A stretch of 64,000 nucleotides of DNA from Nemertoderma westbladi (Eukaryota > Animalia > Xenacoelomorpha). Shown here piece by piece: positions 1 through 47,953 of the stretch. The notes under the pieces are model-generated. The model made no database searches and was not told the origin of the DNA. It was given only the letters and a program-made list of their open reading frames with translations. Within the stretch, counting starts at the first letter, position 1; each line of letters starts with the position of its first letter. Position numbers and translations under genes: made by a program. The DNA is taken from assembly GCA_032718475.1 (NCBI GenBank), contig JAUCBJ010007358.1:34454-98453 (forward strand), read 5' to 3'.

Positions 1-963
1 TTCTGCAGTTGCTTACCATTGTTATACTTATCAGAGGGAGAAATGTTTATTGGCCAGTTGATTCAAAACGCTAATAGGATATGAGGTTGTTATATTGCTA
101 GGCTGTAGGCTACAGTGAACATGTGTTTGCTTAGTTAAGAGTCGTAGCGTATTCTGATTGGTTAGTTAGTTTATATTCCCCTATTGTAATAATTGTAGAT
201 GCCATATAGTTGATTATACGCGGTATATAAATCCGAGAAATATTGCAATATGCAGTGTGTGTAGCATTCTTCCAATATTTTACAGTACCTGCAGTTTTGT
301 CTGTGATGTGAGCAATATTTAGATTATATTTTACTCGGTGTGCCTGGACTACTTATGTGATATAATGTGTTGTAGTGTACAAGTACTCGATATTTCGTGA
401 ATATTTTATTGTGCATTGCGTTTGATAACTGCAACTACAAACAGGATTAAAGCCGTTGGGACCAGTTTCAATAATCGTAGCGTTACCCTATTAGAGCTGT
501 AAGTATATCCTTATATTAATTCTATATTAGACGTTATTCAATATATTACTATTCATGTTATATTTATGTACATTCAACCACGTTTTCAGCCGCCATTAGT
601 TATCCAGCCCGTGTCCCTAGTATCACTTTATCTAAATGTCCCCACATCAAAGATAGACCGCTATATTTCCCTTTCTGATCCCGTTGTTGTCTTAAGTCAC
701 TGCCACACTCAACCCGACTCAACTCTACCCTATACCCAAAACAAACATTTATTGCCAGACCAGTCCGAGTCTTTGTGCTTCACCCTAAGCTACCATTTTA
801 TATCTTACTTACTTACTTACTGGTAGCTACAATAGTGGGTCGCCACTATTGGCTACAGTAGTTTCCAGGCCGTAGTATAATTAAAGAAGCACATTGTAAC
901 ATATTTATTTAAATCCTTCCCGTTTCGTTTTCGCGCGGCGAAGCTGGAATGACCTTATAAATT

Positions 964-1412
964 TGTTACGGGTGGTCTGGCAACCGCTACTTATAATTAG
1001 GCCCTCGCTTTGGTTGCGCAGCCGAGCGAGGACCATTTCTCTTTGTATTTGTAGACAACGTATCGCGATACAACCCTAGCAGCACACACCCACGCCACAT
1101 TATATATATTTGTTTCTAGCCAATTTGGTTATGTAGGTATCGTAATTGTATATAGTTTGTATTGAAACACGACCATAATCATTTGTAACAATAAGTGTAT
1201 ATAATTTTAGAAATTACACAATATTTTAGAATTTTGATATCAAATAAGTAACTAATAATTACTGTTATACTGTATATTCGGTCCTTTTCATTAATTTCAT
1301 GTCATTATTAACCAACTAACAAGATTGAGTTAAATATCGTCATCATTGTCAACTGTACTCTGCTTGTTAATTAAGTCACTACGACGTATACATAATAATA
1401 AATTTTGTTGCA
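964..1412 (+). mobile_element. Candidate 5' LTR of the BEL/Pao element
   Basis: Starts TGTTA and ends TTGCA. TATA-like run near 1101 and AATAAA near 1397. Ends 32 nt before the gag ATG. No second LTR is present to confirm it. Confidence 0.3.
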
Positions 1413-1444
1413 GTAAAGGAAAAATAATATTTAATTAAAATAAA

Positions 1445-4400
1445 ATGTCAGATCATTACAGTACTAGTGCTGCATTGAGTTCCTCATGCGATTCGCAATC
1501 AGAAGATTTGTGCTGGGACGATGCTGCAATGGAACTCACCCCAGCAGAAAGGTCCCATTCAGATTCATTAGCAGCATCTCAAACAGAACGTCAAGCTAAT
1601 GAAATAGAGCAGCAGTGCTCTACAGTGTCTGTATCAGACACACAAAATCAACACCAAGACGACCCTAGGAATTTATTCGAAACCAGACAGGCTCCCGACA
1701 ATACCATGCTTCGAAGGTCTACCCGTCTACCAACCAGGAACTACAGCTCAGCTGTCAATCATGAGCAACAAGTTGCCATTCGAAGACGATTGGCAGCTTA
1801 TAAAGGGAGCCTTACTCAACTTTATAAATCTGAACAGCGCCTGAGTCAGAGTGATTTATATTTAACCCCATTAGCTGTATTTAGAACGCATGTGCATAGC
1901 ATGGAATTGAGCTGGAAAAATATAGAAAGAAGTTACAAAGCGTTGGTGACTCTATGTCTTGAAGATGGGGATGATCGATTAGCATTAGATTACGACCAAG
2001 ATTTACAGATTGCTGAGAACAATTTTTTCCAACACATGCGAATCGCTGAGGAACTAAATGACCAGGCCCAAATTTCACAGCAATCAAAAATTTTAAATGC
2101 AACCGTTTCAGTAACCAACAGGCCTCATATTCCACTTGTCACCACTGTGGATTCAATAAATGCAGTCCTTCCTGTAACTGCTGATTTGGTCACAGCTGCC
2201 CTGGAACAATCTGGAATAAATTTACCCTACGATGGGTTATCCCCAGCCACAGCTCAATCAGCTGGTACTGTAGTAATAGGAGAACGCCCCAAAGGCCAGA
2301 ACACCCCCGCTAAAGCCTTATCCTTTATTCATGCAGGTACAGGTGTGAACGCAAGTACAGATCAACCCGAAACTCAGTTAAATAGAGATGTACATGGGTG
2401 GCTTAATTCGAATCACAATAACAGCCAGTCACAAATAAGTATACCCCTTGAGCCCAAATCTAAGGAATTCCAAAGGATACAAGGTGAGTTCGATACTGCA
2501 GTGGCACAAGGAACCATTGAAAAATATTCTTATCGAACTCTAAAGGGTTTAAGACGAGAAAATGAATTACAAAATGAAATTGTCCCTAATGATTCCGTCT
2601 CCAATGTAGGAAGTAGGTATCATAAACGAGCTACTTCAAAGGCATCATCCAAGGTGTCACGAGTCACCCAATCTGAAACGGGAAGGTCTAACATTATGGC
2701 TGCCCGCAGAGAAGCTGAGCTTCTATCTTTAAAAGCAGAGATGGGGAAGGAGGCAGAAGAGATGAAACTTCTTGAGCAAAGCAGACTCGATGCTCACCGC
2801 GCTGAGCATGAGCATCAAGAGCGAGCATTAAAGGTGAAAGTAAAGTTACAGGAAGCTAATGACAATGCAAAATTAGCCAGGGCCAGATTAAAATTATTGG
2901 AACGGGATGCTGTATTAAGGGATTTCGCCCAAAATAAATCTGGGGAAAAAATTCAGGAAACAAAAAATTCGCGAATATCGATAGACCCTGATGTTCCATG
3001 TGCCAATGCAAGTATTTCTATTAGTGACAACATTAATGTGATACCGGTACCTGTTAGTAGTGTTAGTGTTAGTAGAGTGCAAATGGAGCGGAGTGCTGAA
3101 GTACCAAATGGACGTATGGGTGGAAGTGGAGTTGGTACACCTGTTCGTGCGACTGTTGAAGTGTGTAATGCAGCCAGTGGAAAAAGTAATGTACCGAAAT
3201 TTATGTTAGTGGATAATGGTGTAGCAGGTACTAGTTACATTAGCCCTAGTTATCAACCCAAAAATGATCCTAATGTTTTAGATAAAATTTCAAAATATCA
3301 GCCATCGAATGTTAATGAAAATGAATCAGTTCAGCTTGATAATGATGCTTCGGTGTCTATCGATGTTCATAATTGCCAAAATAAAGCCACTGCAGTAAAC
3401 CGAACTGCACCTCACTCTGGGAATGTCAGTACATTCCCCGATACTGTAGGGAATTCCAAAGATCACTCTATAAAATTGACTGAGCATGAGCTTGAACAGC
3501 CCAAAATGGATAACTTAGAGCCGAGATTACACATTCAAGCGAAAGGTGGGTCAGTGTCTTTGGGCCACACGCAGTCGACACCTGGCCTAAAAGTGAAATC
3601 GATTAGAGTGGCACGGTACCATACATCCTACTCAGATGCACCACAGCATAACTGTTTTGAATATGTTGATACTCCTGTAAAGCATTCAAACTTTATTGCA
3701 TCTACAGCAAGGTCATTGAACCCAATTAAACGACCAGTAACTGGAAGGGCAGCCGAACTTGACACAATTATTGAAGAGAAACAAGATGGCAATGACCAGG
3801 AATGTGCTGCATGCTTGCAAGGAGGGCCTCTTGCAGCAGTACACTACAACCCACGTGGCACCCCATATCATTTGCAAGCTGGCCCAAATCCAATAGCCAT
3901 TCCACACCCTGTACCAGTGTTTAAATCTCGTATCCAACCACCATTCCTACCTCGACCATACGGGAGCAATGGCATAAGAGCAACTCAGGAGCATTCCTTG
4001 GTAAAACCCCCTTTAGTGCCTGCTCCCATTTATGTACCTGCAAAGCAGACTACAGAATTATCAACTGTGCTTAATCCTGCAGCCATCGTCAGCCCAGTGC
4101 TGTCTGAGCCAGAACCTATATATATTAGTTGCAATTCACAAAGACAGGTCACAAACGTTTACTCTCCCGACCAACAACAACCACAGAATATGTTCGAACC
4201 CGATGATCACAAGCAGTCAGTTACCATGGCAACACAAACAGAATCTCATGGTAGGAAAGCGAGTGGAGAACAAGACAGAAATTACAACAAAGTAATTATT
4301 TCCAGTCCTAGAAAGATAACCAAAGTAAGAGAACATGAGGTGGATACAGATATGCCTGACGAACCTGAACATTCAAGTTCCAGAAGCAATGAAATATGTG

Positions 4401-7400
4401 ACAGTAGGGTAAGAGGTCGGCTAATTTCTAAGGCTGATACTATTTTAGCTCAGATTCTGGGTACACACAACGATTCGAACTCTAATTCAATCCTTGGCAC
4501 TGGCGCAGTTACAAATAATATAGGACAGTCAACAACTACAGAATCAGTTTGGAAAAATGTTGTTATGCGTTTAACATTGCCACCACAAATTCCAGAACCA
4601 TTCACTGGTAATCCTATTGAGTTTGTCAGCTTCATTCAAACCTTTTATGACAGAGTTCATGTCCATGACATTACAGACTCTGAAAGACTTAATTACCTGT
4701 TACAATATACCCGTGGAACACCACATACTGCTATTCGGAAGGTGAAAGGGCTGCAGTCTGGATATGCTAAAGCCTTGGAAATACTAAATGACCGTTATGG
4801 AAATTCATTACAAATAGTTGATAAGACAATATCCCAACTCGTTGATATCTCTCGCCTGGGTGATAATGATATCATTGGATTGAGAGAATTGGCTGATAAC
4901 CTCATGCAAGCAACACAGTTATTGGAACAAATGGGACGGTCTAATGAAATGAATAGTGTAGAGCATATGAAAAGAATAATAAGTGTCTGCCCCACTCATG
5001 TGCAGTATAAATGGCAAAAACGTGTTCATGAATTAAAAATGATCCATAAGAGACAACCAACTTTCAATGATGTAGTACAGCATATTGAATGGTCAGCAGG
5101 AGTGTCCTGTAACTCAGTATTTAAAGTCAATAGAAAGGCTATCGAAGATTCCACATCATCATCTCAAGGATATGGCAAGGGCCAGAACAAGGATCGGGGA
5201 GGCAATAATAAAACAACATTTCGTCCACCAAATGATGGATCACAACACAATTCCTTTGAGAATTTGCCAGGGAGGCTGGGATTTCCACAACATCCCCGTG
5301 CAACCATGTTACTCACTGATACCCATTACGGAAATACCAATCAACAACCCTATGGAGTAAATCAAGGCTACACCCATATGTCAGAAAATGGACCATATCC
5401 TTTGCATCATGTTGCACCACCACCTTTATCAAATCCAGACTATCGACATCAGCCACTGACGGCACGATTTCAATCTCCAATGCAACTACAACAAACCTAT
5501 CGTAAACCTGTATTAAACCCAAATAAACAGCAACAACCCAATAAGAATCATACAAATCCAACAGGTCCATCTATAGTCAGACCTTTCAAGGAGGCAGCAT
5601 ACAAGTGCATTTACTGTGGTGGAATTGGTCACCGAATATATTCATGTGGATCCTTCATGAAACTGAACCTAGGGGAAAGGCAGAAACATGTTGAAAGCAA
5701 CAATTGGTGCACTAATTGTCTAGGAATGCACCTCACAGAAAAATGTCAGTCGAAAGCAACATGCACAAAATGTGGTAGAAACCACCATACTCTACTCCAC
5801 CCACTGAGCAGTACACCAGCTCATCAATCAATGCATCCTAAGCCACGGGAAGGTGAAATTGGTCTTCTTGTAAATACAGAATATCTGGGAGCTATGGTAC
5901 CAGTTATTCCTGTACTGATTAAGTTTATGGATAGAATTCCTATCACTACCTTCGCCATATTGGATGGAGGATCTACCACCTGTTTCTTGGATAAAGGAGT
6001 AGTGGATTTGATGAACATTCCATCAGAAAAAAGGTTCATAAAAGTAAATACATTATTAGAAAATGGTGTTCTTGTCGAAATAGCTAGAACTCAGTGTACA
6101 ATAAGCGCTATGCTACCGGGATATCATGGGGAACTAGTTATGAACAATATGAATGTTCACGAAAGCATGCACTTTGACACACAATTACCTGACTCAAGGA
6201 TGATTGATTGGCCCCATTTTTATAACATTAGAGATAAATTAGACTACCCACCTGTCGATGTTCATAAGATTTCTGTGATTTTGGGAAGCAATGTACCAGC
6301 AGCACACATACGGACTGCACAGTGCTGGGGGAGTGATGTGAATAAACAACCCTTTGCGATAGAAGGCATATTTGGATGGTGTGTGACTGGTCCTAGACTT
6401 TGCTATATAGAGGAGTCAATGCAAGCCTGTGTGGGGGAAGTGATGGACAACCCTTCACTAATAGAAACATTGAACAAACCAATATACGATCCAATAAATT
6501 ATCCAATAAGTACCGATCCTGATAATGATCTTTACACACAGTTGGCACACTTTTGGAGCCAAGAGGGACAAGGCTTTACAACACCTGAAGGTAAGGTGTA
6601 CAAAACTGAAAGTGATAAGAGAGCTATAAATCTCCTAGAGAAGGCCGTACTTTTGCCAACTGGGCATTACCAGGTACCACTGTTATTCAAACATGAAGAC
6701 CGACAGTTAATAAATAACAAACCACTCGCTATTGCAAGATTGAAAAGTCTGACAAAAAGATTTGCCACAAACCCAGGAAGAGAGAACGAGTACAGAGAAA
6801 TTTTGGAGGATTATATAGCAAAAGGTTATGCTAGAAAGTTAGAGACTGAGGAGCTTGCAGATGATCATAATGCATATTATCTCCCTCATCACTATGTAGT
6901 AAATCCAAATAAAGATAAGATTCGAATTGTGTTCGATGCAGCTGCAACATACAAAGGAATGTCTTTGAACTCACAACTTCTGGAAGGACCAAATGCTACC
7001 AACGACCTATTAGGCGTACTGATGAGATTTAGGCAGGATAAAATTGCATTTTCCTGTGACATTGAATGTATGTTCTATCAAGTAAACACGACTGAAGAAG
7101 ATTCTAATAGCCTAAGATTCTTATGGTATGACAAGGATTCAAAGAAACGCGATCCTGATGTATACAAAATGGTTGTTCAGATATTTGGAGCACGTTCATC
7201 CCCATGTTCCGCCTGCTCAATGGTGCGAAAGACCGCGAAAGATAATATTCAAGACTTCTCCCCACAAGTAATAAAGACTATACTTAGTGGTTTCTATGTC
7301 GATGATGGGATGAAATCGACTGGATCAGTTAATGAAGCTTATGAGATCGCAACTGGTTTAATCGAATGCTTGAAGAAAGGTGGTTTTAATCTAACAAAAT

Positions 7401-10217
7401 TTAAAAGCAATTAGCGGGAACTTCTTGATAAGCTTCCACAAACGAAGAGAGCTGACCCAAACCTAGACCTTGACCTCGACAAACTCCCTACAACCCGGGC
7501 ATTAGGTGTTAAGTGGGACACGGAGGCAGATACCTTCAGTATTAAAGTCAGCCCAAGAAAGTTTCCAACTACAAAACGGAATTGTTTATCTAGTTTGGCA
7601 TCTATTTATGACAAATTAGGATTAGTTGCTCCTGTATTACTTATCGGCAAGAGATTTATGCGGGAGTTGTCCATATCAACCCCTAGCTGGGATACCCAAT
7701 TGGATGTTGAGTTTCTTACACGTTGGAACGAATGGAGTCGCCAGTTGGACTGTTTGAACGAACTCTCATTACCCCGTGCTTATTTTTCGAATCGCTTGAG
7801 TTCAGATCGCATAGAACTCCATATATTTTGTGATGCCTGTGAGACTGGATTAGGAGCTGTTGCATACCTGCGTCAACTTAGGAGAGCTTTGACAGAAGAA
7901 ACACCAAATACCATTATCAATGAAAGTTGCAAACAACCGCAATATGAAGTATCGACAGCATTTGTACTGGCAAAAACCAGAACTGCGCGAAAGAAGTTTG
8001 TTTCTATACCCCGAAAGGAGTTGCAATCTTGTGTTCTTGCCACTAGAATGTCAATCATAATACATGATGAAGTAGAACTATTTATAAATGCGACACATTT
8101 TTGGAGTGATTCCAGAACGTCGTTACAATACATAGCAAACCAGGATAAAAGGTACCCAACCTACATAATTAATAGAGTCGGTGAAATCGTCAAGAGTACT
8201 AATCCAAATCAATGGCATCATGTGAAGGGAATAGACAATGTAGCTGACATGGCCAGTCGTGGGGCGTTCCCACTAGACTTCATTGATAAGTTTGACCTAT
8301 GGTCAAAAGGACCCCAATTCTTACAAACTGATGAACTAGAATGGCCAAATGCTACTCAGCAATATACTGGTAAGGACTTGGATCCTACTGCTGAAATAAA
8401 ATCTAAACGCAAAGTTAATGACATGGGCCCACGAGACGATATAGAACCTATCCCTACTAGTTCGATAGACTATGCACAATTACATTCAATTGATGTGATG
8501 ATAACAATCGAAACACCTACAAATACCACAAATCTGTTACTAGACAAGCTGCTTTCATATTATGGAGATTGGATTCCTTTGATTAGAACTGTTGCTTGGT
8601 TGGTGCGTTTTAAAATGTGGTATATTCGCTCATTTCGCTTAAGACGTAGTCTTAAGCAAAGGTTAATACCAAAGAAGAAGATTAAGGTACTACCGAAATC
8701 ATTATGTTCTAATGCAAAGTCAGTCAATGATAAAGAAGGAACAGTGAAGCCTGTGAACAAACCCAAGAAAAAACAAACGATACAAGTTGTGAAACGCGAT
8801 GTGTTAAACTCTCTGCCAAAACCAGCACCAAAATCACAGTATCCTCTAACATTAGCCGAGGTGCAGGATGCACGTGTCCTTGTATTGAAATATTCACAAC
8901 AAAAGACATATCCAACTTAACTAGCAAGTTTGAAAGTGAACAAACCCATACACAGAAACAGCAACATATTTAAGTTATGTCCCTTTCTAGGAGAGGATGG
9001 CCTAATACGTATGAACAGCCGATTGGTGAAGACACCAACAAACCCTGATATGGCACAACCCATAATCCTATCCTCCAGTTGCCCAGTGACCAGGTTGATA
9101 GTGAGGTATACACATTCAGAGAACATGCACACAGGCAGAGATCATACTTTGGCGATAGTAAGACAAATTTATTGGATTGTGGGGGGACCTGCAAAGCTCG
9201 CAACCCAACGCCACTTAACCAAATAATGGCACCTCTACCCATCGATCGCATTACAGCATTTGAACCCTGCTTTACCTACACTGGTGTTGATTATTGGGGA
9301 TTTATGCTTGTACAACAGGGCAGAAGATCTGTGAAGATGTGGGGCGTAATTTTTACTTGCCTAGTCTCTCGAGCCGTTGCACTAGACTTAGCGGAAGATC
9401 TATCTGCAAGCACATTCATAAACTGCTTCCGTAGATTTGTCTGCCAATATGGAAATGTAAAACTACTCAGATCCGACAATGGAACAAATTTCGTCGGAGC
9501 CGAAACCGAATTATCTGACGCAATCGACCACTGGGACGTTTCACGAATTCAACACAACTTAGGCCCTCAAACGAAATTTGAGTTCCAAGTACCTTATGCA
9601 CCTCACACATCTGGAGTTTGGGAACGATTGAATCGGCCTGCTAAGGACGCTTTACGTGTTGCCCTAGGAAACAAGCTAGTCACCGAAGGCGTAGTGAGAA
9701 CAGCACTCGCTGAGGCAGCAAGAATTATGAACTCAAGACCGCTCTGTAAAGTAACAGATGATCCGACTGCCGACCAGGTACTGACACCAAACGACTTGTT
9801 ATTACGTAAGATAGTTTCACCTTGCCCTGGGGTATATGAGGAGGGTGATATATATTGTCGAAAGACCTGGAAGCAGGCACAGGCATTGACTGAAATATTC
9901 TGGGATAGATGGCTTCTAGAATACTTACCGCTGTTGCGAGAAAGACAAAAGTGGTTCACTAAGAAAAGAAACCTACAACCAGGCGACCTTGTACTTCAAA
10001 TGACAGACACAAAGAATAGACGAACGTGGATCACCGGGGTGATAGACTCTGTAAATCTAGGATCCGACGGTTGTGTTAGATCAGCACAAGTTAGGTGTGG
10101 CGGCACAATCTACTCTAGACATGTCACAAAGCTATGCTTGCTCGAGGCGACAATTACAGAGGAAGAAACTGACGCAAAACGAGCAAATGAGGACTCAGCA
10201 GATTCGTCTGTAAATTC
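1445..10217 (+). mobile_element. BEL/Pao LTR retrotransposon gag-pol, disabled, antisense within RNF19 intron 4
   Basis: Gag with three Zn knuckles (CIYCGGIGHRIYSC, CTNCLGMHLTEKC, CTKCGRNHHTLLH), protease ILDGGS, RT (RIVFDAA, YVDD), RNase H (HIFCDAC, FWSDS) and integrase (GVDY, SDNGTNF, WERL), in BEL order. In-frame stops at 7412-7414 and 8918-8920. Deletion/frameshift near 9187 in the integrase Zn finger. Confidence 0.95.
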
Positions 10218-11587
10218 GACTCCCCAATACTTACTAGACATTGTTAGAGACCCCGACCCAACCAGACTCCCCAATACTTACTAGACATTGTTAGAGACCC
10301 CGACCCAACCAGACTCCCCAATACTTACTAGACATTGTTAGAGACCCCGACCCACCCAGACTCCCCAATACTTACTAGACATTGTTAGAGACCCCGACCC
10401 AACCAGACTCCCCAATACTTACTAGACATTGTTAGAGACCCCGACCCAACCAGACTCCCCAATACTTACTAGACATTGTTAGAGACCCCGACCCACCCAG
10501 ACTCCCCAATACTTACTAGACATTGTTAGAGACCCCGACCCAACCAGACTCCCCAATACTTACTAGACATTGTTAGAGACCCCGACCCACCCAGACTCCC
10601 CAATACTTACTAGACATTGTTAGAGACCCCGACCCAACCAGACTCCCCAATACTTACTAGACATTGTTAGAGACCCCGACCCAACCAGACTCCCCAATAC
10701 TTACTAGACATTGTTAGAGACCCCGACCCAACCAGACTCCCCAATACTTACTAGACATTGTTAGAGACCTCGACCCAACCAGACTCCCCAATACTTACTA
10801 GACATTGTTAGAGACCCCGACCCAACCAGACTCCCCAATACTTACTAGACATTGTTAGAGACCCCGACCCACCCAGACTCCCCAATACTTACTAGACATT
10901 GTTAGAGACCCCGACCCAACCAGACTCCCCAATACTTACTAGACATTGTTAGAGACCCCGACCCACCCAGACTCCCCAATACTTACTAGACATTGTTAGA
11001 GACCCCGACCCAACCAGACTCCCCAATACTTACTAGACATTGTTAGAGACCCCGACCCAACCAGACTCCCCAATACTTACTAGACATTGTTAGAGACCCC
11101 GACCCAACCAGACTCCCCAATACTTACTAGACATTGTTAGAGACCCCGACCCAACCAGACTCCCCAATACTTACTAGACATTGTTAGAGACCCCGACCCA
11201 ACCAGACTCCCCAATACTTACTAGACATTGTTAGAGACCCCGACCCAACCAGACTCCCCAATACTTACTAGACATTGTTAGAGACCCCGACCCAACCAGA
11301 CTCCCCAATACTTACTAGACATTGTTAGAGACCCCGACCCAACCAGACTCCCCAATACTTACTAGACATTGTTAGAGACCTCGACCCAACCAGACTCCCC
11401 AATACTTACTAGACATTGTTAGAGACCCCGACCCACCCAGACTCCCCAATACTTACTAGACATTGTTAGAGACCCCGACCCAACCAGACTCCCCAATACT
11501 TACTAGACATTGTTAGAGACTCCGATCCAGCTAGACTCCCCAATACTTACTAGACATTGTTAGAGACTCCGATCCAGCTAGACTCCC
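10218..11587. repeat. 47-bp minisatellite (~29 copies) containing the RNF19 exon-4 5' splice site
   Basis: Unit CCCCAATACTTACTAGACATTGTTAGAGACCCCGACCCAACCAGACT; the minus strand reads ...ATGTCTA|GTAAGTATTGGGG. Confidence 0.97.
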
Positions 11588-11962
11588 TTGTATGCGGCCA
11601 CCAAAAGCGTCTCGCCCCCTTCTCGCTGCTTCGCACGTCATATTTGGGTGCCAGAATTGTTTGCAATGGTAACAGAAGCAGGTGTCGCACCCCGGACGTC
11701 CACACACAATGCGGGGACAACTGGCGCATCCGGTTGCGATAACAGCGTAACCGCAATCGGGTGTGGGGCACCATCGGCAGTCCGGGTCCGTAGCCAGAAG
11801 TCGACGGAGGGTGAACTCCTCGTACTTAAGGAATACCGAGGAGGAATCCACGCCGAGGATCGCCTTTATATCGTTGGGATGGAGACGTTCCGAGCATTCC
11901 GGACAGCTGATGTTGGTACGGCTCTCCGAGATCTCGATACGGATGTATTGCTGGATACAGTC
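11551..11962 (-). CDS. RNF19: RNF19 (Dorfin-like) RBR E3 ligase, coding exon 4 (end of RING1 plus IBR)
   Basis: [25 protein letters not shown]...[38 protein letters not shown]...[15 protein letters not shown] closely matches RNF19A/B as recalled. Boundaries are tttag|GAC and A|gtaagt. Confidence 0.93.
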
Positions 11963-14900
11963 CTAAAGGGGGGGGGGGGGGGGGGGGTGTAAATGGAAGG
12001 ATACAGTCCGAAATGGGGGATTCCCGATTGTAAATGGAAGGGTACAATCCTAAAGGTGGGAGTGTAAATTAAAGGATGCAGCCCTAAAGGGGGGGGGGGG
12101 GGAGTGTAAATGGAAGGATACAGTCCTAAAGGGGGGAGTGTAAATGGAAGGATACAGTCCTAAAGGGGGGGGGGGGGGGAGTGTGAATGGAAGGATACAG
12201 TCCTAAATAGGGGAGTGTAAATGGAAGGATACAGTCCTAAGGGGGGGGGGGGTAAATTGAAGGATACAGTCCTAAATAGGGGAGTGTAAATGGAAGGATA
12301 CAGTCCTAAAGGAGGGAGTGTAAATGGAAGGATACAGTCCTAAATAGGGGAGTGTAAATGGAAGGATACAGTCCTAAATAGGGGAGTGTAAATGGAAGGA
12401 TACAGTCCTAAAGGTGGGAGTGTAAATGGAAGGATACAGTCCTAAAGGGTGGGGGGGGGGGGAGTGTAAATGGAAGGATACAGTCCTAAATAGGGGAGTG
12501 TAAATGGAAGGATACATTCCTAAATGGGGGAGTGTAAATGGAAGGATACAGTCCTAAATAGGGGAGTGTAAATGGAAGGATACAGTCCTAAATAGGGGAG
12601 TGTAAATGGAAGGATACAGTCCTAAAGGAGGGAGTGTAAATGGAAGGATACAGTCCTAAATAGGGGAGTGTAAATGGAAGGATACAGTCCTAAATAGGGG
12701 AGTGTAAATGGAAGGATACAGTCCTAAAGGAGGGAGTGTAAATGGAAGGATACAGTCCTAAATAGGGGAGTGTAAATGGAAGGATACAGTCCTAAATAGG
12801 GGAGTGTAAATGGAAGGATACAGTCCTAAATAGGGGAGTGTAAATGGAAGGATACAGTCCTAAATAGGGGAGTGTAAATGGAAGGATACAGTCCTAAATA
12901 GGGGAGTGTAAATGGAAGGATACAGTCCTAAATAGGGGAGTGTAAATGGAAGGATACAGTCCTAAAGATGGGAGTGTAAACGAAAGGATGCAGCCTTAAA
13001 AGGGGGGAGGGGGGGGGGGGGGTGTAAATGGAAGGATACAGTCCTAAAGGTGGGAGTGTAAATGGAAGGATACAGTCCTAAAGGTGGGAGTGTAAATGGA
13101 AGGATACAGTCCTAAATAGGGGAGTGTAAATGGAAGGATACAGTCCTAAAGGAGGGAGTGTAAATGGAAGGATACAGTCCTAAATAGGGGAGTGTAAATG
13201 GAAGGATACAGTCCTAAAGATGGGAGTGTAAACGAAAGGATGCAGCCTTAAAAGGGGGGAGGGGGGGGGGGGGTGTAAATGGAAGGATACATTCCTAAAG
13301 GAGGGAGTGTAAATGGAAGGATACAATCCGAAATGGGTGATTGTAAATGGAAGGATACAGTCCTAAAGGTGGGAGTGTAAACGAAAGGATGCAGCCTTAA
13401 AGGGGGGGGGGGGGGGGGGGGGTGTAAATGGAAGGATACATTCCTAAAGGAGGGAGTGTAAATGGAAGGATACAGTCCTAAATAGGGGAGTGTAAATGGA
13501 AGGATACAGTCCTAAATAGGGGAGTGTAAATGGAAGGATACAGTCCTAAATAGGGGAGTGTAAATGGAAGGATACAGTCCTAAAGATGGGAGTGTAAACG
13601 AAAGGATGCAGCCTTAAAAGGGGGGAGGGGGGGGGGGGGGTGTAAATGGAAGGATACAGTCCTAAAGGAGGGAGTGTAAATGGAAGGATACAGTCCTAAA
13701 TAGGGGAGTGTAAATGGAAGGATACAGTCCTAAATAGGGGAGTGTAAATGGAAGGATACAGTCCTAAATAGGGGAGTGTAAATGGAAGGATACAGTCCTA
13801 AAGGGGGATAGTAAATGGAAGGATACCCGATACAGTCCTAAAGGGGGGAGTGTAAATGGAAGGATACAGTCCTAAATAGGGGAGTGTAAATGGAAGGATA
13901 CAGTCCTAAAGGAGGGAGTGTAAATGGAAGGATACAGTCCTAAATAGGGGAGTGTAAATGGAAGGATACAGTCCTAAATAGGGGAGTGTAAATGGAAGGA
14001 TACAGTCCTAAATAGGGGAGTGTAAATGGAAGGATACAGTGGAAGGATACAGTCCGAAATGGGGGGATTGTAAATGGAAGGATACAGTCCTAAAGGAGGG
14101 AGTGTAAATGGAAGGATACAGTCCTAAATAGGGGAGTGTAAATGGAAGGATACAGTCCTAAAGATGGGAGTGTAAACGAAAGGATGCAGCCTTAAAAGGG
14201 GGGAGGGGGGGGGGGTGTAAATGGAAGGATACATTCCTAAAGGAGGGAGTGTAAATGGAAGGATACAATCCGAAATGGGTGATTGTAAATGGAAGGATAC
14301 AGTCCTAAAGGTGGGAGTGTAAACGAAAGGATGCAGCCTTAAAGGGGGGGGGGGGGGGGGGGGTGTAAATGGAAGGATACATTCCTAAAGGAGGGAGTGT
14401 AAATGTAGGGGGTGTAAATGGAAGGATACAGTCCTAAAGATGGGAGTGTAAACGAAAGGATGCAGCCTTAAAAGGGGGGAGGGGGGGGGGGGTGTAAATG
14501 GAAGGATACAGTCCTAAAGGAGGGAGTGTAAATGGAAGGATACAGTCCTAAATAGGGGAGTGTAAATGGAAGGATACAGTCCTAAATAGGGGAGTGTAAA
14601 TGGAAGGATACAGTCCTAAATAGGGGAGTGTAAATGGAAGGATACAGTCCTAAAGGGGGATAGTAAATGGAAGGATACAGTCCTAAAGGGGGGAGTGTAA
14701 ATGGAAGGATACAGTCCTAAATAGGGGAGTGTAAATGGAAGGATACAGTCCTAAAGGGGGGGGGAGTGTAAATGGAAGGATACAGTCCTAAATAGGGGAG
14801 TGTAAATGGAAGGATACATTCCTAAAGGAGGGAGGGTAAATGGAAGGATACAGTCCTAAAGATGGGAGTGTAAATGGAAGGATACAGTCCTAAATAGGGG

Positions 14901-17900
14901 AGTGTAAATGGAAGGATACATTCCTAAAGGAGGGAGTGTAAATGGAAGGATACAGTCCTAAATAGGGGAGTGTAAATGGAAGGATACAGTCCTAAAGGGG
15001 GGGGGAGTGTAAATGGAAGGATACAGTCCTAAATAGGGGAGTGTAAATGGAAGGATACATTCCTAAAGGAGGGAGGGTAAATGGAAGGATACAGTCCTAA
15101 AGATGGAGTGTAAATGGAAGGATACAGTCCTAAATAGGGGAGTGTAAATGGAAGGATACATTCCTAAAGGAGGGAGTGTAAATGGAAGGATACAGTCCTA
15201 AATAGGGGAGTGTAAATGGAAGGATACATTCCTAAAGGAGGGAGTGTAAATGGAAGGATACAGTCCTAATAGGGGAGTGTAAATGGAAGGATATAGTCCT
15301 AAAGGGGGGGGGGAGTGTAAATGGAAGGATACAGTCCTAAATAGGGGAGTGTAAATGGAAGGATACATTCCTAAAGGAGGGAGGGTAAATGGAAGGATAC
15401 AGTCCTAAAGATGGGAGTGTAAATGGAAGGATACAGTCCTAAATAGGGGAGTGTAAATGGAAGGATACATTCCTAAAGGGAGGGAGGGTAGAATGGAAGG
15501 ATACAGTCCTAAAGATGGGAGTGTAAATGGAAGGATACAGTCCTAAAGGGGGGGGGGAGTGTAAATGGAAGGATACAGTCCTAAATAGGGGAGTGTAAAT
15601 GGAAGGATACATTCCTAAAGGAGGGAGGGTAAATGGAAGGATACAGTCCTAAAGATGGGAGTGTAAATGGAAGGATACAGTCCTAATGGGGGGAGTGTAA
15701 ATGGAAGGATACAGTCCTGAAGGGGGGAGTAAATGGAAGGATACAGTCCTAAAGGATGGAGTGTAAATGGAAGGATACAGTCCTAAAGGGGGGGAGTGTA
15801 AATGGAAGGATACAGTCCTAAAGGGGGGGGGGAGTGTAAATGGAAGGATACAGTCCTAAATAGGGGAGTGTAAATGGAAGGATACAGTCCTAAATAGGGG
15901 AGTGTAAATGGAAGGATACATTCCTAAAGGAGGGAGGGTAAATGGAAGGATACAGTCCTAAAGATGGGAGTGTAAATGGAAGGATACAGTGCTAAAGGGG
16001 GGAGTGTAAATGGAAGGATACAGTCCTAAATAGGGGAGTGTAAATGGAAGGATACAGTCCTAAATAGGGGAGTGTAAATGGAAGGATACAGTCCCAAATA
16101 GGGGAGTGTAAATGGAAGGATACAGTCCTAAATAGGGGAGTGTAAATGGAAGGATACAGTCCTAAATAGGGGAGTGTAAATGGAAGGATACAGTCCTAAA
16201 TAGGGGAGTGTAAATGGAAGGATACAGTCCTAAAGGTGGGAGTGTAAATGGAAGGATACAGTCCTAAATAGGGGAGTGTAAATGGAAGGATACAGTCCTA
16301 AATAGGGGAGTGTAAATGGAAGGATACAGTCCTAAATAGGGGAGTGTAAATGGAAGGATACAGTCCTAAATAGGGGAGTGTAAATGGAAGGATACAGTCC
16401 TAAATAGGGGAGTGTAAATGGAAGGATACAGTCCTAAATAGGGGAGTGTAAATGGAAGGATACAGTCCTAAATAGGGGAGTGTAAATGGAAGGATACAGT
16501 CCGAAATGGGGGATTGTAAATGGAAGGATACAGTCCTAAAGATGGGAGTGTAAATGGAAGGATACAGTCCTAAAGATGGGAGTGTAAATGGAAGGATACA
16601 GTCCTAAATAGGGGAGTGTAAATGGAAGGATACAGTCCTATATAGGGGAGTGTAAATGGAAGGATACAGTCCTAAATAGGGGAGTGTAAATGGAAGGGTA
16701 CAGTCCTAAATAGGGGAGTGTAATTGGAAGGATACAGTCCTAAATAGGGGAGTGTAAATGGAAGGATACAGTCCTAAAGATGGGAGTGTAAATGGAAGGA
16801 TACAGTCCTAAATAGGGGAGTGTAAATGGAAGGATACAGTCCTAAATGGGGGAGTGTAAATGGAAGGATACAGTCCTAAATAGGGGAGTGTAAATGGAAG
16901 GATACAGTCCTAAATAGGGGAGTGTAAATGGAAGGATACAGTCCTAAAGGGGGGGAGTGTAAATGGAAGGATTCAGTCCTAAATAGGGGAGTGTAAATGG
17001 AAGGATACAGTCCTAAATAGGGGAGTGTAAATGGAAGGATACAGTCCTAAAGGGGGGGAGTAAATTGAAGGATACAGTCCTAAAGATGGGAGTGTAAATG
17101 GAAGGATACAGTCCTAAATAGGGGAGTGTAAATGGAAGGATACAGTCCTAAATAGGGGAGTGTAAATGGAAGGATACAGTCCTAAAGGTGGGAGTGTAAA
17201 TGGAAGGATACAGTCCTAAAGGGTGGGGGGGGGGGGAGTGTAAATGGAAGGATACAGTCCTAAATAGGGGAGTGTAAATGGAAGGATACAGTCCTAAATA
17301 GGGGAGTGTAAATGGAAGGATACAGTCCTAAATAGGGGAGTGTAAATGGAAGGATACAGTCCTAAATAGGGGAGTGTAAATGGAAGGATACAGTCCTAAA
17401 TAGGGGAGTGTAAATGGAAGGATACAGTCCTAAAGGTGGGAGTGTAAATGGAAGGATACAGTCCTAAAGGGGGGGGGGGGGGGGAATGTAAATGGAAGGA
17501 TACAGTCCTAAATAGGGGAGTGTAAATGGAAGGATACATTCCTAAAGAGGGGAGTGTAAATGGAAGGATACATTCCTAAAGAGGGGAGTGTAAATGGAAG
17601 GATACAGTCCTAAAGAGGGGTGTAAATGGAAGGATACACTCCTAAAGGGGAGGGGGGAGGGAGAGTAAATAGAAGGATACACCCCTAAGCGGGGGGGGAG
17701 TAAATGGAAGGATACAGTCCTAAATAGGGAAGTGTAAATGGAAGGATACAGTCCTAAATAGGGGAGTGTAAATGGAATGATACACTCCTAAAAGGGGGGG
17801 GGGGTGTAAATGGAAGGATACAGTCCTAAAGGGGGGAGTGTAAATGGAAGGATACAGTCCTAAAGGGGGGGGGGAGTGTAAATGGAAGGATACAGTCTTA

Positions 17901-17930
17901 AAGAGGTGGGGGGGTGTAAATGGAAGGGAC
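11953..17930. repeat. 34-bp minisatellite (~6 kb, roughly 170 copies) containing the RNF19 exon-4 3' splice site
   Basis: Unit GGATACAGTCCTAAATAGGGGAGTGTAAATGGAA with variable G runs; the minus strand reads ttccatttacactcccctatttag|GACTGTATCC. Confidence 0.97.
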
Positions 17931-17954
17931 AGTTAGTGCGGACTATAAACTAAC

Positions 17955-18133
17955 CATGCACGACCTGTGTTCGCAGGTAACAACATTAGCGAAGTTGCTC
18001 TTGGGTTGATTGGTTAGACATAAAGGGCATTCATCGGTAGCTGATGGAGAGAATGTCTCGGTACGGGAAGGTTTCCGGCTCTTAGAGCTACTGATTGATG
18101 GCGGGTGGGTGGAATATGTAGAAGACAGTTCGC
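17955..18133 (-). CDS. RNF19: RNF19 coding exon 3 (start of RING1)
   Basis: ...TDECPLCLTNQPKSNFANVVTCEHRSCM joins in phase 0 to DCIQQY. Boundaries are ttaacag| and |gttagt; 179 nt. Confidence 0.9.
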
Positions 18134-18162
18134 CTGTTAAATATAAACAAACTGGATTTAAT

Positions 18163-21100
18163 AGTCAGGTCAGGTCCCCAGATCCTGCTACCACTATGGC
18201 AGTAATGTGGTATTACCTGTAGCTGTCAGCCCAGTAGGGCAGGCCCGATAAGCATAGCCTATTCATTATTTAGTTGATCAAGAGTGGGTTGGTTTTAGCC
18301 CCGTCAACTAAATAAGTCATTGAGGGCTATAGCGCCTCGGGCACCATTGAAGGCAAAGGCCTGATACGCATCTGCAATAGAGATGATAAACGCCCCGCCC
18401 TGTCTATACTGGATGCTCCTCTACCAGTGTTAGGTAACCTAACCCTGGAGGCACACTTGGTTCAGGGTGTAACAAATGGACCCCTACAGTCGGCAGCAGG
18501 GCTGTAGGCCATGATAGGCGGAAGGTAATCAACCAACGGCTAGACATGCTGACAAGGTCGGCGGAAGGTAATCAACCAACGGCGACCTACTGCGAAGACG
18601 CTTGTAGGAGTTGCGACCATAAGCGGTTTACTCTCGCAACTGAAAGATATGAGTATGAGAACCCTCCAGGAGAAATACCGGCTCGGTCGTCGCCCGGGTC
18701 AACAAGGACCGCGTCCCTCAGTGGTACACCAGGCTGGGGTCGATAAGTTGGCTACTAGAACAAATGACAGAGAAGAAAGAAGAACCAACCTGTTGAAATG
18801 TAAAAAGACACTAAAGATTGCTACAATGAGCGCACGCATGCTGAAAGCACATAGCAAACAGGGTGACATGGTCGCTCTGGCAATGGAGTATAACATCGAC
18901 ATCATCTGCATCCAAGAACATCGGATTTGTCATGAAGACACTGCCATGAAGTACAATGACATTGGAAATGGATGGACGTTAGTAACAAGCTCAGCAGTAA
19001 CAAACTCGGCCAATGCATCAATTGGTGGAGTAGGAATTCTGCTAAGCCCATTTGCACTTAAGACCCTAAACAACATCGAATCTATAAATTCCAGGGTTAT
19101 GATCGCAACATTTGATGGGAATCCCAAGGCAACAGTTATATGTTGCTACAGTCCAACCAATTCCTCAGAGCCAGAACAAGCAGTCAAGTTTTATGAAGAA
19201 CTGACTGGACTTATTAAGGACATCCCGAAACACAATGTTAAAGTCATTGCTGGTGACCTGAATGCGCAAATTGGCCCAGAAGAAATCAAGGGTTACACAC
19301 TATAACACCAGTTCTAACAGAAATGGGTACTTACTTTTAGACCTAATGGAAGAATGTGAATTGATACCAACAAACAACACATTCGAAAAGAGTAAGGGGA
19401 AGCTATGGACCTTTCAATACCCTAATGGAACCAAAGCACATCTGGATTACATGCTTATAAACAAAAAGTGGAGAAACAGCATGATCAACTGCGAGGCATA
19501 CAGCTCGTTCAACCTAATTGGTTCGGACCACAGAATTGTGACTGCAGAGATCAGACTCAGTTTGAGAGCCAGCAAACCCAGGACAAGCAAGCAAATCAAA
19601 TATGACTGGGAGAAACTCAGAACTGACAATGCTGTAAAGGATGCTTATACAGTAGAAGTTCAAAACCGCTTTGAAGCACTTCAGTCAATGGATGAAGACC
19701 AATCCACCAATTCAATATACCAGAATATAATAACAGCCCACAAGGAATCAGCTAAGAGGCATATCCCCCAGAAACCCAAACGAAAACAGTATGTGCCATG
19801 GCAAAACTTGTTACTTGTAAGAGAGACGATCTTAAGGAGGGGGGGGGGTAGCGCATTTTCTCACCAAAAAGACGAATTTTTGAAACATATCCTATCTGAT
19901 GCAGAATTTCATGCTGAATCCAAATATGGAAACCGTTTTCCGATATCTTGCTTAGTTTTCGAGATATCTGGGATAGAAGATACTGGCTCCGATATATCGC
20001 GATATCGGTAAAGGCGATGAAGTTTGGGGTTTGCATTCAATTTATGCAAATTTCTCTGCTCAGTGTGCCAATTGGATGTCATTGGAAATGGATGGACGTT
20101 AGTAACAAGCTCAGCAGTAAGAAATTCGGCCAATGCATCAATTGGTGGAGTAGGAATTCTGCTAAGCCCATTTGCACTTAAGACCCTAAACAACACCGAA
20201 TTTATAAATTCCAGGGTTATGATCGCAACATTTTATGGGAATCCCAAGGCAACAGTTATATGTTGCTACAGTCCAACCAATGCCTCAGAACCAGAACAAG
20301 CAGTCAAGTTTTATGAAGATCTGACTGGACTTATAAAGGACATCCCGAAACACAATGTAATATGTTATAATATAATATAATATTATATAATATAATAAAG
20401 CGAGTGAATTAGATGAAATCTCAGCGGAGGTATGGAAAACCGGAGTGCTAAACAGACCATTATTGAATGTTTGCAACCGGATGTTAAAAGGGGAAAAGCC
20501 ACCACCAATTTGGACTAAAGGTCAACTAAAGCCTCTCCCCAAGAAAGGAGACCTCGGCATACCAACAAACTATCGTGGGATCTGTCTGCTTGTGGAAGCT
20601 GCCAAAATATACAATAAAATGATTCTATATAGGATTAGGCCTAACATAGAGAAACTACTCCGTAAGAGCCAAAACGGATTTCGACCAAGCAGATCAACAA
20701 TAGCTCAGATACTTGCATTACGGAGACTGATTGAAGGAATTAAGTCAAAAAATCTCCCCGCAGTCATGACTCCATCCATAGAGGTAAAATGCTTGAAATC
20801 CTAAGAGCTTATGGAATACCAGAAGTAATTGTTGCTGGCATTGGATTGTTATATTGTGACACAGAAGCGCAGGTACTCTCACCAGATGGTGAAACTGAGT
20901 TTTTCTCAATCCTGGCTGGCGTACTGCAAGGTGACACATTAGCACCATTACTATTTGTAATTGTGCTGGATTACGCAATGCGGACGGCCACAAAGGGTGA
21001 AGATCTGGGATTCACACTTCAAGAACGCAGAAGTAGTAGATATCCGGCAACTACAGTCACAGACACCGACTTTGCGGATGACATCGCCCTGCTCTCTAAT

Positions 21101-21828
21101 ACGCTAGCAGATGCACAGCTTCTACTAAATAAAGTGGAGAGGGCTGCTAAGGAGGTTGGATTGCATATAAATGCTACAAAGACCGAATTCATGACCTTTA
21201 ATGTTGATGGGAACTTGACAACCATTGATAATAATCAACTAAGGAAGGTCGATGACTTCCAGTACCTTGGATCAAGGATAGAGAGTAGTAAAAAGGACAT
21301 AGAAGTTAGGAAAACAAAGGCTTGGGTAGCTCTATCAAAAATGGATACCATCTGGAAATCAGATCTCTCCAGGCACCTGAAGACCAAGTTCTTTCGAGCC
21401 ACAGTGGAAAGTGTATTTTTATACGGGGGTGAGACCTGGACACTGACTAAATCACTTGAACAACGAATTGATGGTTGCTACACAAGACTACTAAGGGCAG
21501 CCCTAAACATCAGCTGGAGACAACACATGACAAACGCCGAGCTTTATGGTACAATACCACCTGTATCCACCACCCTCTGTGAACGCAGATTGAGATTCAA
21601 TGGGCACTGCTGGAGAAGTTAAGACGAGGTCATACCGATCTACTTTTCTGGCAACCAACTCATGGAAAGCGTAGTCGTGGACGACCGGCCATAACATATA
21701 TAGATCAACTTGAAAGGGATACTGAACTTGGGAGAAACGAAATTGGAAATTGCGACAACTATGGAGAATCGGGAAGCCTGGAAGGATCTCATTTCCACTG
21801 ACCGAGTTCGCTCGACCTAGTAGTAGTA
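18163..21828 (+). mobile_element. RTE-like non-LTR retrotransposon, near full length, frameshifted and rearranged
   Basis: APE motifs (IQEHR, YSPT, GDLNA, LDY, SDH) and RT motifs (QNGFR, GVLQGDTLAPLLF, FADDIAL, YLGS), C-terminal GHCWR, (TAG)n tail. 9-bp TSD GGATTTAAT at 18154-18162 and 21829-21837. Confidence 0.92.
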
Positions 21829-21957
21829 GGATTTAATTAATTTAATTTAATTAAACCAATAGCGATAAGTCAACAAATCAAAGGACATATTATTATGGAG
21901 TTACGCCTCCCTGCGAATATAATATAATAGTTTGCAGGCACTCTCACTCCCACCTAC

Positions 21958-22102
21958 CGGCATTGGATTGTGCGCTGATACTCTGGGCCGAATCATCAGA
22001 CGGGACCCTCGGACGTCTAGACGGTCGCCTAGAGAACAACCGACGGAGTGAGAACTGGATGTCGTTACTGATAAACGAGTTGTTTCTACGGGTTCTACGT
22101 TC
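21958..22102 (-). CDS. RNF19: RNF19 coding exon 2
   Basis: tttatag|ERRTRRNNSFISNDIQFSLRRLFSRRPSRRPRVPSDDSAQSISAQSNA G|gtaggt. Phase 0 in and phase 1 out, which fits exons 1 and 3 exactly. Confidence 0.8.
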
Positions 22103-22120: not shown

Positions 22121-22860
22121 TGGAGTGTATGAGTGGGAATGTATGAGTGGGAGGTTTACTGTGGGAGTGTATGAGTGGGAGTGTATGAGTGGGAGTGTAT
22201 GAGTGGGAATGTATGAGTGGGAATGTATGAGTGGGAATGTATGAGTAGGAGGTTTACTGTGGGAGTGTATGAGTGGGAGTGTATGAGTGGGAGTGTATGA
22301 GTGGGAATGTATGAGTGGGAATGTATGAGTGGGAGGTTTACTGTGGGAGTGTATGAGTGGGAATGTATGAGTGGGAGGTTTACTGTGGGAGTGTATGAGT
22401 GGGAGTGTATGAGTGGGAGTGTATGAGTGGGAATGTATGAGTGGGAATGTATGAGTGGGAGGTTTACTGTGGGAGTGTATGAGTGGGAATGTATGAGTGG
22501 GAGGTTTACTGTGGGAGTGTATGAGTGGGAGTGTATGAGTGGGAGTGTATGAGTGGGAGTGTATGAGTGGGAATGTATGAGTGGGAGGTTTACTGTGGGG
22601 TGTATGAGTGGGAGTGTATGAGTGGGAGTGTATGAGTGGGAGTGTATGAGTGGGAGGTTTACTGTGGGGTGTATGAGTGGGAGTGTATGAGTGGGAGTGT
22701 ATGAGTGGGAATGTATGAGTGGGAATGTATGAGTGGGAGGTTTACTGTGGGGTGTATGAGTGGGAATGTATGAGTGGGAGGTTTACTGTGGGGTGTATGA
22801 GTGGGAGTGTATGAGTGGGAGTGTATGAGTGGGAGTGTATGAGTGGGAGGTTTACTGTGG
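22121..22860. repeat. 14-bp G-rich minisatellite
   Basis: GTGTATGAGTGGGA with variant GGTTTACTGTGGGA. Starts about 18 nt from the exon-2 acceptor. Confidence 0.95.
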
Positions 22861-27605: not shown

Positions 27606-27854
27606 CATTATGGGGCTGTTGTTGCGACGAAAATTGATTCCATTGTCACTGACTTCAACGTTCACGTTGTTTTTACTTCCAACACCTGTGACTCCATTGT
27701 TGTGACTTTTAAACGGCTCACCAATGTCACAGTAATCGGTTGCGCTGCTGCTTCTAGACACACCAGGAGCAGCACCCAACGTGGAGGTACCGGTACCACC
27801 AGATGCTGAACCCAATGTTGTAGCTGTTGGCCGACAACAAACCTCGCCCTGCAT
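27606..27854 (-). CDS. RNF19: RNF19 probable first coding exon
   Basis: ATG-initiated 83-codon Ser/Gly/Asn-rich frame ending ATG|gttagt, phase-compatible with exon 2. No domain homology to anchor it. Confidence 0.65.
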
Positions 27855-28441: not shown

Positions 28442-29134
28442 GGTCCTACTAAAAACCGCAACTTACCGCAATTTACCGCAACTTACCGCAATTTACCGCA
28501 ACTAACCGCAATTTACCGCAACTAGTTGTTATTTTCAAGCAGCTGCATGGTCCAGTGGCGAAATTCCTGGGCTTCCAATTAGGAGGCCCCGGTTCGATCC
28601 CTTGCTGCCTTGACAGCTTGACAGTGCAGCACTGTTTTCTGTTTGTGCAGTGTTTTAAAAACGGTCCTACGAATTACCCCAAACCAGAATAGGCCCCTAC
28701 CCCGAAATACTTGTTTTTCACTCTCGTTTATTGTTTTGGTTAGAAAAACTTGCCACTGTAACCTGCTCCTTTCCCTCACTGTTTCTAAACATTGTTGTCC
28801 TATTTTGGGGTAGGCCTAATTCGTAGGACCCTCTAACAGTCTAATGTTAACATATCTTGGTTTTATATTGATCATACTGTCATATTACAGCATTAATTAT
28901 AAATTTTGTCGTTTTTAAAACACTGCAAAAACAGCGTTGCCTGGTCAAGGGATCGAACCAGGGCCTCCTACGTGGAAGCGCAAGGTTTGTCACCACTAGA
29001 CCACGAGGCAGCTTGAAAATGACAATTAGTGATTAGTTGCGGTAAATTGCGGTAAGTTGCGGTAAATTGCGGTAAGTTGCGGTAAATTGCGGTTAGTTGC
29101 GGTAAATTGCGGTTTTTACTGTTTTAGTAGGACC
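28442..29134. mobile_element. Foldback/MITE-like element with long inverted arms, tRNA-like segments and a nested related MITE
   Basis: Termini GGTCCTACTAAAA / TTTTAGTAGGACC, inverted (TTACCGCAAY)n blocks, and an inner GGTCCTACGAATT...AATTCGTAGGACC at 28663-28830. Confidence 0.8.
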
Positions 29135-33500: not shown

Positions 33501-33559
33501 GTAGTTTTTTAACACTCGAACCGATGGAGTACAAGATAATCGCTGTGAAGCGATATTAA
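30503..33559 (+). pseudogene. Intronless cytochrome P450 (CYP2 clan), interrupted at codon 5/6 by the TTAA element; body intact at 32076-33559
   Basis: TM anchor, WxxxR, AGTETT, ETLR, PEEFNPNNF and FGLGARSCLG. Removing the insert restores MYVILIALLALTVLFYFLLL in frame. Confidence 0.88.
30519..32071. mobile_element. Non-autonomous piggyBac-like DNA transposon (1553 bp)
   Basis: TTAA at 30515-30518 and 32072-32075. TIR CCCTATTA/TAATAGGG, subterminal palindrome GGGGTCAATATGACCCC at both ends, internal degenerate repeats at about 30840-31550, no transposase. Confidence 0.88.
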
Positions 33560-38174: not shown

Positions 38175-38194
38175 CTGTAAGAAAAATTAAAGAA

Positions 38195-44354: not shown

Positions 44355-44373
44355 ATAATCGACACAAACTCAC

Positions 44374-44668
44374 TTCTGACACCTATCCTCTAACTCTCTC
44401 AACTCCCGAGGTTCGTCCGACTCCGGTAACTTGGGGTCGCATCGCTCCAACAGATCCAACGTCCGTTTAATAAGGTCCGCGGCCTCTGTCTCGTTAAACG
44501 GACCAATAGGAGGCAGTATAGAGTCACCAGCATCGGAGGACTCAACGTCCTGCAACTCAACTTCCTCCTTAAATCGAAGTTTCCGTTTCTCTACAGCCGG
44601 AGTTAGAATCTCCACGTATGACTTGGGGAACAGACCGACTTGCATTGGTTGACGGGACTCCACATAAC
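44374..44668 (-). CDS. STAM: STAM exon 3 (SH3 end, GAT start)
   Basis: ttag|G YVESRQPMQVGLFPKSYV...LLERCDP...ELEDRCQ AA|gtgagt; phases 1 and 2 fit both neighbours. Confidence 0.9.
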
Positions 44669-47815: not shown

Positions 47816-47847
47816 CATTCTCATCTTTTTTCAAAAACAGTACCAGT

Positions 47848-47953
47848 ACCAGTATATACTCGATATATAACCAGTATATACTCGATATATAACCAGTATA
47901 TACTCGATATATAACCAGTATATACTCGATATATAACCAGTATATACTCGATT
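47848..47953. repeat. 22-bp tandem repeat (~4.5 copies)
   Basis: ACCAGTATATACTCGATATATA. Confidence 0.9.

Follow-up and report, generated by a model that had tools for sequence, protein, structure and literature searches.

A 170-unit minisatellite across the intron 3/exon 4 border of RNF19 in Nemertoderma westbladi and the use of its last copy as splice acceptor

Introduction

Tandem repeats lying over exon/intron borders, with regular splicing kept, were described in lancelets and termed 'mirages' (PMC3087553, PMC3902484). In the accessible text of these papers the amphioxus examples are the globins BflGb6 (6 and 3 units) and BflGb9 (PMC3087553), as well as Adh3, troponin C and PGBD5 (PMC3902484); units of 10-72 bp are cited there for the Adh3 mirage (PMC3087553, PMC3902484), and both 5' and 3' borders can be copied. 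In human, the 37-bp VNTR of F7 intron 7 is present in 5-9 copies and its first unit spans the exon/intron border; according to the available part of that report the identical pseudo-donors are silent and the most upstream donor is used (PMC1557585). The same text mentions tandem duplications in gamma-globin, for which the proximal copy was used in one study and the opposite was seen in another (PMC1557585).

In a literature search beyond lancelets, which was thin on subscription journals, border-spanning arrays were found just in human. In the constructs of Reed and Maniatis from 1986 a duplicated site that has just a short exon piece beside it is reportedly outcompeted by the one bordering the complete exon; two artificial sites competed there in vitro, as against 155 natural ones in the locus described here.

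The DNA analysed (the window) is a stretch of 64,000 nt of Nemertoderma westbladi (assembly GCA_032718475.1, contig JAUCBJ010007358.1, positions 34,454 to 98,453 of the forward strand). It contains part of an RNF19 gene whose exon 4 is flanked by two arrays. As far as the accessible descriptions of the lancelet mirages go, these arrays resemble them in that tandem units span the border, many but not all units carry AG or GT, splicing is normal in the one RNA run and 5' and 3' borders are both copied; the units of 34 and 47 nt also fall inside the range cited for Adh3. The differences from the same descriptions lie in the 170 copies, compared with 3 and 6 in BflGb6 (PMC3087553), in the array making up 99.5 % of its intron and in a single exon having acceptor copies on one side and donor copies on the other. 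The 47-nt array is like the F7 VNTR in its silent, identical pseudo-donors and in that the most upstream donor is the one employed, with 29 copies in comparison to 5-9; the F7 VNTR is a donor array only, and the 5'-to-3' scanning considered for it in the available text leaves the use of a last acceptor unexplained (PMC1557585).

The intron 3 array is likely a very large, tolerated minisatellite of the mirage type. The kind is known and use of the copy adjoining the exon is the expected answer, so the value of the locus lies in its scale and testability. We favour, with a probability of about 0.7, the reading that the acceptor array is a neutral minisatellite across the border of intron 3 and exon 4, tolerated by the gene, of which the assembled mRNA uses only the last copy.

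Results

RNF19 and its exons

The gene had been named RNF19 in the initial annotation of the sequence, and this name was upheld by an IBR domain in exon 4 (Pfam, E 8.9e-14), by the closest homologues of that exon, RNF19A/B, with 62-73 % identity (best 120 of 996 matches), and by the register of exons 3 and 4, which abut with offset 0 when projected onto 120/120 of these homologues (best 120 of 996). RING1 is cut by intron 3 in phase 0 between CEHRSCM and DCIQQY, RING1-IBR is in register with RNF19A/B, and exons 1-4 joined give 328 codons free of stops. The identification rests on RING1-IBR, the RING2 and transmembrane exons falling outside the window. The positions of exons and arrays are collected in Table 1.

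Intron 2 contains a very high-copy repeat at 18160-18500, whose depth in DNA runs is thousands of times that of single-copy sequence; fragmented LINE sequence (RVT_1) also occurs in the 18160-18500 and 18550-21830 region. Upstream of RNF19, two inverted tRNA-like pieces (28545-28600 and 28945-29005) are flanked by 10-nt repeats (ACCGCAACTT / TTGCGGTAAA) and possibly represent a SINE-derived inverted element.

Table 1. Positions of RNF19 exons and array features in the window
Feature	Position	Strand	Basis or remark
RNF19 exon 1, coding part, predicted	27606..27854	-	frame open with exons 2-4
RNF19 exon 2	21958..22102	-	3' end from X1 loose end; 5' end frame-predicted
RNF19 exon 3, 179 nt, first part of RING1, ends CEHRSCM	17955..18133	-	X1 spliced contig, loose ends are exons 2 and 4
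Unique 5' end of intron 3, 29 nt, donor GTTAGT	17926..17954	-	covered by X2 and X3 DNA contigs; not by X1
CACTAAC, sole CTRAY in intron 3	17932..17938	-	intron nt 17-23, A is intron nt 22; probably not the branch point in use
Acceptor minisatellite, 170 units, modal 34 nt, 155 YAG	11953..17925	-	both ends and unit-unit junctions in X2 and X3
Region of long-poly-C TTTAA units 100, 104, 108, 124, 130, 134, 141	12995..14503	-	shared variant tail
Unit 169, AG lost (TTTCG)	11999..12039	-	87-nt AG-free zone before used acceptor
Unit 170, used acceptor: TTTAC, 20 C, TTTAG	11953..11998	-	use from X1 contig
RNF19 exon 4, 412 nt, remaining RING1 and IBR	11551..11962	-	X1 contig, 0 differences; Pfam IBR
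Donor minisatellite, 29 copies of 47-nt unit (exon 4 end and GTAAGTA...)	10218..11587	-	first donor (11550) used

Composition of the acceptor array

Intron 3 (17954..11963, minus strand) is a GT..AG intron of 5992 nt in phase 0, running from GTTAGT to TTTAG. It consists of 29 unique nt at the 5' end followed by 170 head-to-tail units (TRF: 169.6 copies, period 34), in agreement with the ~170 copies of an acceptor-spanning 34-nt unit reported at the outset. The modal 34-mer joins 24 nt of the intron end to the first 10 nt of exon 4, and 71/170 units are identical to it. All 158 matches of a 19-nt unit motif fell within the array, compared to 0 in 100 shuffles. The intron has 167 AGs in total. 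At the acceptor position 155 units have YAG, 8 TTTAA, 5 TTTCG and 1 TTTGG, and 1 is truncated; all 8 TTTAA units keep an AAG one base downstream.

The array comprises 55 unit variants arranged with higher-order blocks. The mean distance to the modal unit is 4.1 in units 1-10, 0.6-1.75 in units 11-60, 5.55 in units 101-110 and 4.62 in units 161-170. Seven interior TTTAA copies with long poly-C share an identical variant tail and an identical following unit, and are one lineage that goes back to one event; because they count as one event, these seven AAG copies only suggest selection.

Several details of the initial annotation could be made more precise. Its unique part of ~25 nt does hold the donor and CACTAAC, its true length being 29 nt. 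TTTAA is present in the first copy as described there, but it is not peculiar to unit 1, being shared by seven interior copies. The ~20-nt poly-C tract of the used copy amounts to 20 C, at 11968-11987. As for the seeding microhomology, the exact match at the junction is just CC, in addition to a 5-nt match shifted by one base. The 29 nt and the intronic 24-36 nt of one unit add up to ~55-65 nt, and the ~100-fold growth of a ~60-nt intron may fairly be inferred.

The AG nearest upstream of the used acceptor is 87 nt off. Loss of the AG in unit 169 was considered as a sign of selection and rejected, since TTTCG is found in 5 units and the array ends seem more diverged anyway.

Use of the last copy in the message

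Three public runs from three studies (X1, X2 and X3) contain exon 4; they were compared as contigs and none of them is recorded as RNA, all three carrying the label 'DNA?' and being marked as possible sources of the window DNA. X1 was taken for RNA on two grounds: three introns are skipped at GT-AG in its contig, and the repeat at 18160-18500 stays below exon depth in it, whereas X2-X4 show the repeat at thousands of times single copy. X4 did not cover exon 3 and X6, a run from another organism, yielded no records; neither result was given any weight.

An X1 contig of 2572 nt (depth 1312.8) covers exon 3 only, its loose ends matching the beginning of exon 4 and the sequence from 21959 onward. 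A record of equal length and depth covers exon 4, with exon 3 and an exon outside the window as loose ends, and the exon 3 and exon 4 parts of the contig abut (record positions 1556-1970 and 1969-2149). The X1 message joins 21958 to 18133, 17955 to 11962, which is the last of the 170 copies, and 11551 to exon 5. Exons 2-3-4-5 are therefore joined at authentic sites in one contig of one RNA run, and the 17955 to 11962 junction, marked for checking in the initial annotation, was seen. X1 depth was 0 over 11998-12040, 11530-11547 and 17905-17944; contigs lose rare variants, so zero depth is compatible with low-level use of decoys. The depth at 11962-11997 came from 31-nt G-run records with 3-4 differences (7/92 listed) and was left out as intron cover.

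Branch-point spacing

TTTAC occurs in 167 copies in intron 3, each unit having its own. In the used copy the A of this motif (11990) lies at -28 from the exon, a spacing owed to the 20-C tract, and it is the likely branch point. For 129/155 YAG units the distance of this A from the exon-equivalent is 16 nt; it is 28 nt in the last unit only. The used copy ranks first of the 155 YAG units both in this spacing and in its pyrimidine run (23). The spacing across YAG sites is graded from 14 to 28 nt. In a hypothetical one-unit ancestor of 65 nt the TTTAC A was computed to lie at +38 and -28, and an ancestral intron of this length may have had its branch A in that position.

Five further acceptors could be defined in the window (RNF19 introns 1-2 and STAM introns 1-3), and all of them have the A of a YTNAY motif at -28 to -32. 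A shared 5-nt window within -50..-12 arose in 47/5000 mononucleotide and 86/5000 dinucleotide shuffles (p about 0.01-0.02), for a motif and a window width picked after viewing the data of five acceptors, one of them confirmed by RNA; the motifs of these five do not share a 4-nt window. Among the AGs of intron 3, 10/167 have the motif at -28..-32 (7 AAG, 1 GAG and 2 TAG). Only 2/157 YAGs do so, namely the used copy and the interior TAG 14385.

Donor array of intron 4

GTAAGTA is kept in 29/29 donor units, and the 47-nt back-joint of the array is present in X2 and X3. The X1 contig leaves exon 4 at 11549-11551 into the next exon, that is, at the first donor; use of a downstream donor would meet a stop after 17 nt. 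Exon 4 thus has arrays at both of its borders, acceptors at one and donors at the other, and at each it is the adjoining copy that prevails. Spacing cannot have any purchase on the donor side, the 29 donors being identical, and a first-come or exon-defined choice would fit there, as in the case of the human F7 VNTR (PMC1557585).

An exact match of 7 bases exists between the exon start of the donor unit and the far end of the array, which may be truncated; this could be a microhomology that seeded it. The integrase end of an LTR retrotransposon adjoins this array. The element occupies 1439-10200 (plus strand) in intron 4, carries DUF1759, in-frame stops and frame changes, and is presumably of the BEL/Pao type, to judge by its motifs. 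Its 3' LTR seems to have been lost through deletion or an assembly join, because a second copy of window positions 1-1400 was not found in the window.

Discussion

A tolerated minisatellite

The array may have started from the duplication of a 34-46 nt piece that lay over the acceptor in an intron of ~55-65 nt, with slippage on short imperfect homology as a conceivable cause. It would then have spread by ordinary tandem-repeat turnover in higher-order blocks, a process to which the observed variants point. Exon 3 is joined to the last copy in the one RNA run, and branching would likely take place at TTTAC -28 of that copy; judging by the five other acceptors, the motif of the decoys, mostly at -16, is likely too close for this species. 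The last copy is likely the only one to have both a whole exon following it and a local branch point at a suitable distance. Exon definition or proximity may favour the copies that adjoin exon 4, which are the ones observed in use on either side. The strict exon definition put forward in the initial annotation is likely part of the answer, next to local spacing and NMD.

Splicing to any of the upstream AGs was computed to give a premature stop (166/166); for in-frame decoys this is inevitable, given a phase-0 intron whose last bases are TAG. Decoy-spliced messages would probably be targets of NMD, which would remove them. Decoy stops together with NMD would make the array tolerable, and steady-state RNA cannot separate a precise choice from clean-up.

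The 155 near-identical YAGs and 29 identical donors around one exon constitute a ready-made competition series, which could separate exon definition, local spacing and NMD. Border arrays also lengthen introns ~100-fold without transposons, and they can mislead gene prediction.

Alternative explanations

A stronger claim, which we consider doubtful, is that the spacing acts as a ruler: the branch would have to lie 28-32 nt before the exon, and poly-C length would set which copies are live and which dead. The modal unit would then be too short and the used copy of sufficient length, and the spread of long interior copies would have required prior loss of their YAG. Slippage in poly-C would toggle decoys, so that this one intron held 155 latent knock-down alleles and could serve as a natural ladder on which to measure how 3' splice sites are chosen. 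The interior TAG 14385, with its motif at -31, and the six YAG units reaching -24 to -26 are caveats to the spacing. The rule, with poly-C length as a dead/live switch, is the potentially new part of this analysis, and we put little weight on it.

That the choice is sloppy, with interior acceptors often used, the messages removed by NMD and the cost hidden at steady state, appears unlikely. Such use is made conceivable by the 155 YAG copies and by the stops that follow from all 166 decoys, and with at least 1.5 kb of mRNA, including more exons, lying downstream the decoy messages would likely be NMD targets. However, no X1 contig lies over the array core, which is weak evidence against it, and the human F7 pseudo-donors, in the accessible part of the report, are silent even where no stop would follow (PMC1557585).

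Control of RNF19 by copy-number-tuned NMD, as envisaged in the initial annotation, is possible; that copy number or poly-C length sets the NMD share of the message under selection seems to us very improbable. All decoys are unproductive and arrays lie on both sides of exon 4, as such a dial would have it. No decoy isoform is present among the X1 contigs, which lose rare forms, however, and the stop of in-frame decoys is automatic in a phase-0 intron ending in TAG; moreover, like arrays fill 32 % of the window and also occur away from splice sites.

There is little to suggest that the array is real and its length inflated several-fold by the assembly. The length of ~6 kb does rest on the assembly, as only short-read contigs are available and none spans the array; the summed contig depth over the unit core, ~110x that of the exon (X2 1559/14.1; X3 629/5.55), is no measure of copy number. 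Nevertheless, 55 ordered unit variants are unlike a collapsed or looped assembly. Both ends recur in the DNA runs, as do unit-unit junctions and such rare variants as the TTTAA of unit 1 and the 7-nt shorter TTTCG unit. Both X2 and X3 include the unique 5' part, continuing into unit 1, and each departs from the window at a single site in exon 3. At the other end, exon-anchored contigs contain at least 13 (X2) and 15 (X3) of the 20 C of the used acceptor, and an unanchored X3 record matches 11953-12005 with 0 differences.

CACTAAC, the best branch point of the initial annotation and the only CTRAY in the intron, is an unlikely branch point at a distance of 6 kb, and the reading that it is used with the array looped out to the last AG, or that the intron is removed stepwise, can be set aside as highly implausible: its A is just 22 nt from the donor, where the minimum in fly is ~38 nt, it is separated from the used AG (11963) by 164 AGs across 5.96 kb, each unit has a local TTTAC, and signals for stepwise removal are absent from intron 3 (0/167 AGs precede GT as in AG/GT ratchet sites, and GTRAG is found 0 times). 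The arrangement it would demand is that of distant-branch-point exons, in which, according to the accessible text, the branch point lies 100-400 nt from the acceptor and the zone between them must be free of AG (PMC1431707). A hairpin between the exact reverse complements GTTAGT, at the donor, and ACTAAC was likewise rejected, since folding of the donor region did not surpass that of shuffled sequence (z 0.48), which also speaks against looping.

Other arrays and genes in the window

To return to the tolerated minisatellite, array expansion is common in this DNA, since twelve long arrays fill 20.7 kb, or 32 % of the window. Five of the twelve sit at one of 13 defined splice sites or come to within 21 nt of one; with the intron 3 array left out the count is 4/11, for which the binomial p ranges from 6e-5 to 3e-3 depending on the assumed seedable sequence, with a hand-chosen array list and 70-nt zone and some STAM coordinates off by 1-2 nt. 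This pile-up at splice borders exceeds the expectation for random seeding and counts against purely ordinary expansion. It may come from old short introns with younger transposons in mid-intron, from protection against deletion beside exons, or from a mutational bias at splice borders. If the ruler reading were true, the pile-up at intron ends would mean that splice borders themselves seed minisatellites. G-runs are abundant on one strand of both RNF19 arrays; G-quadruplex motifs are enriched near splice junctions, according to the accessible part of a preprint (10.1101/700575).

A 14-nt array at 22122-22849 (minus strand; CCCACTCATACACT, sense strand) ends 19 nt before the acceptor of RNF19 intron 1. 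The A of its last CTCAT is at -28, and the array resembles an amplified branch-point region without AG.

A STAM-like gene (VHS, SH3) of about four exons, one of 677 nt, lies at 37470-53360 (minus strand) and seems intron-poor compared with its vertebrate counterparts. In its predicted intron 44373-38175 a 44-nt array starts ~20 nt past the donor and a 36-nt array ends ~20 nt before the acceptor (arrays 38195-39781 and 42145-44352, minus strand). The 44-nt unit contains TTTAG/GTTATGT, comparable to the acceptor CTTAG/GTTATGT of the preceding exon. A second copy of 410 nt of the STAM VHS exon, acceptor included, lies 13 kb off with 99 % identity (61853-62262 and 48632-49041). A homologue search with the VHS piece gave no matches.

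At 32303-33556 (plus strand) there is an intronless ORF of 418 aa, which we take from its motifs to be cytochrome P450-like, followed by G-rich arrays of 42/83/167-nt and 25-nt units.
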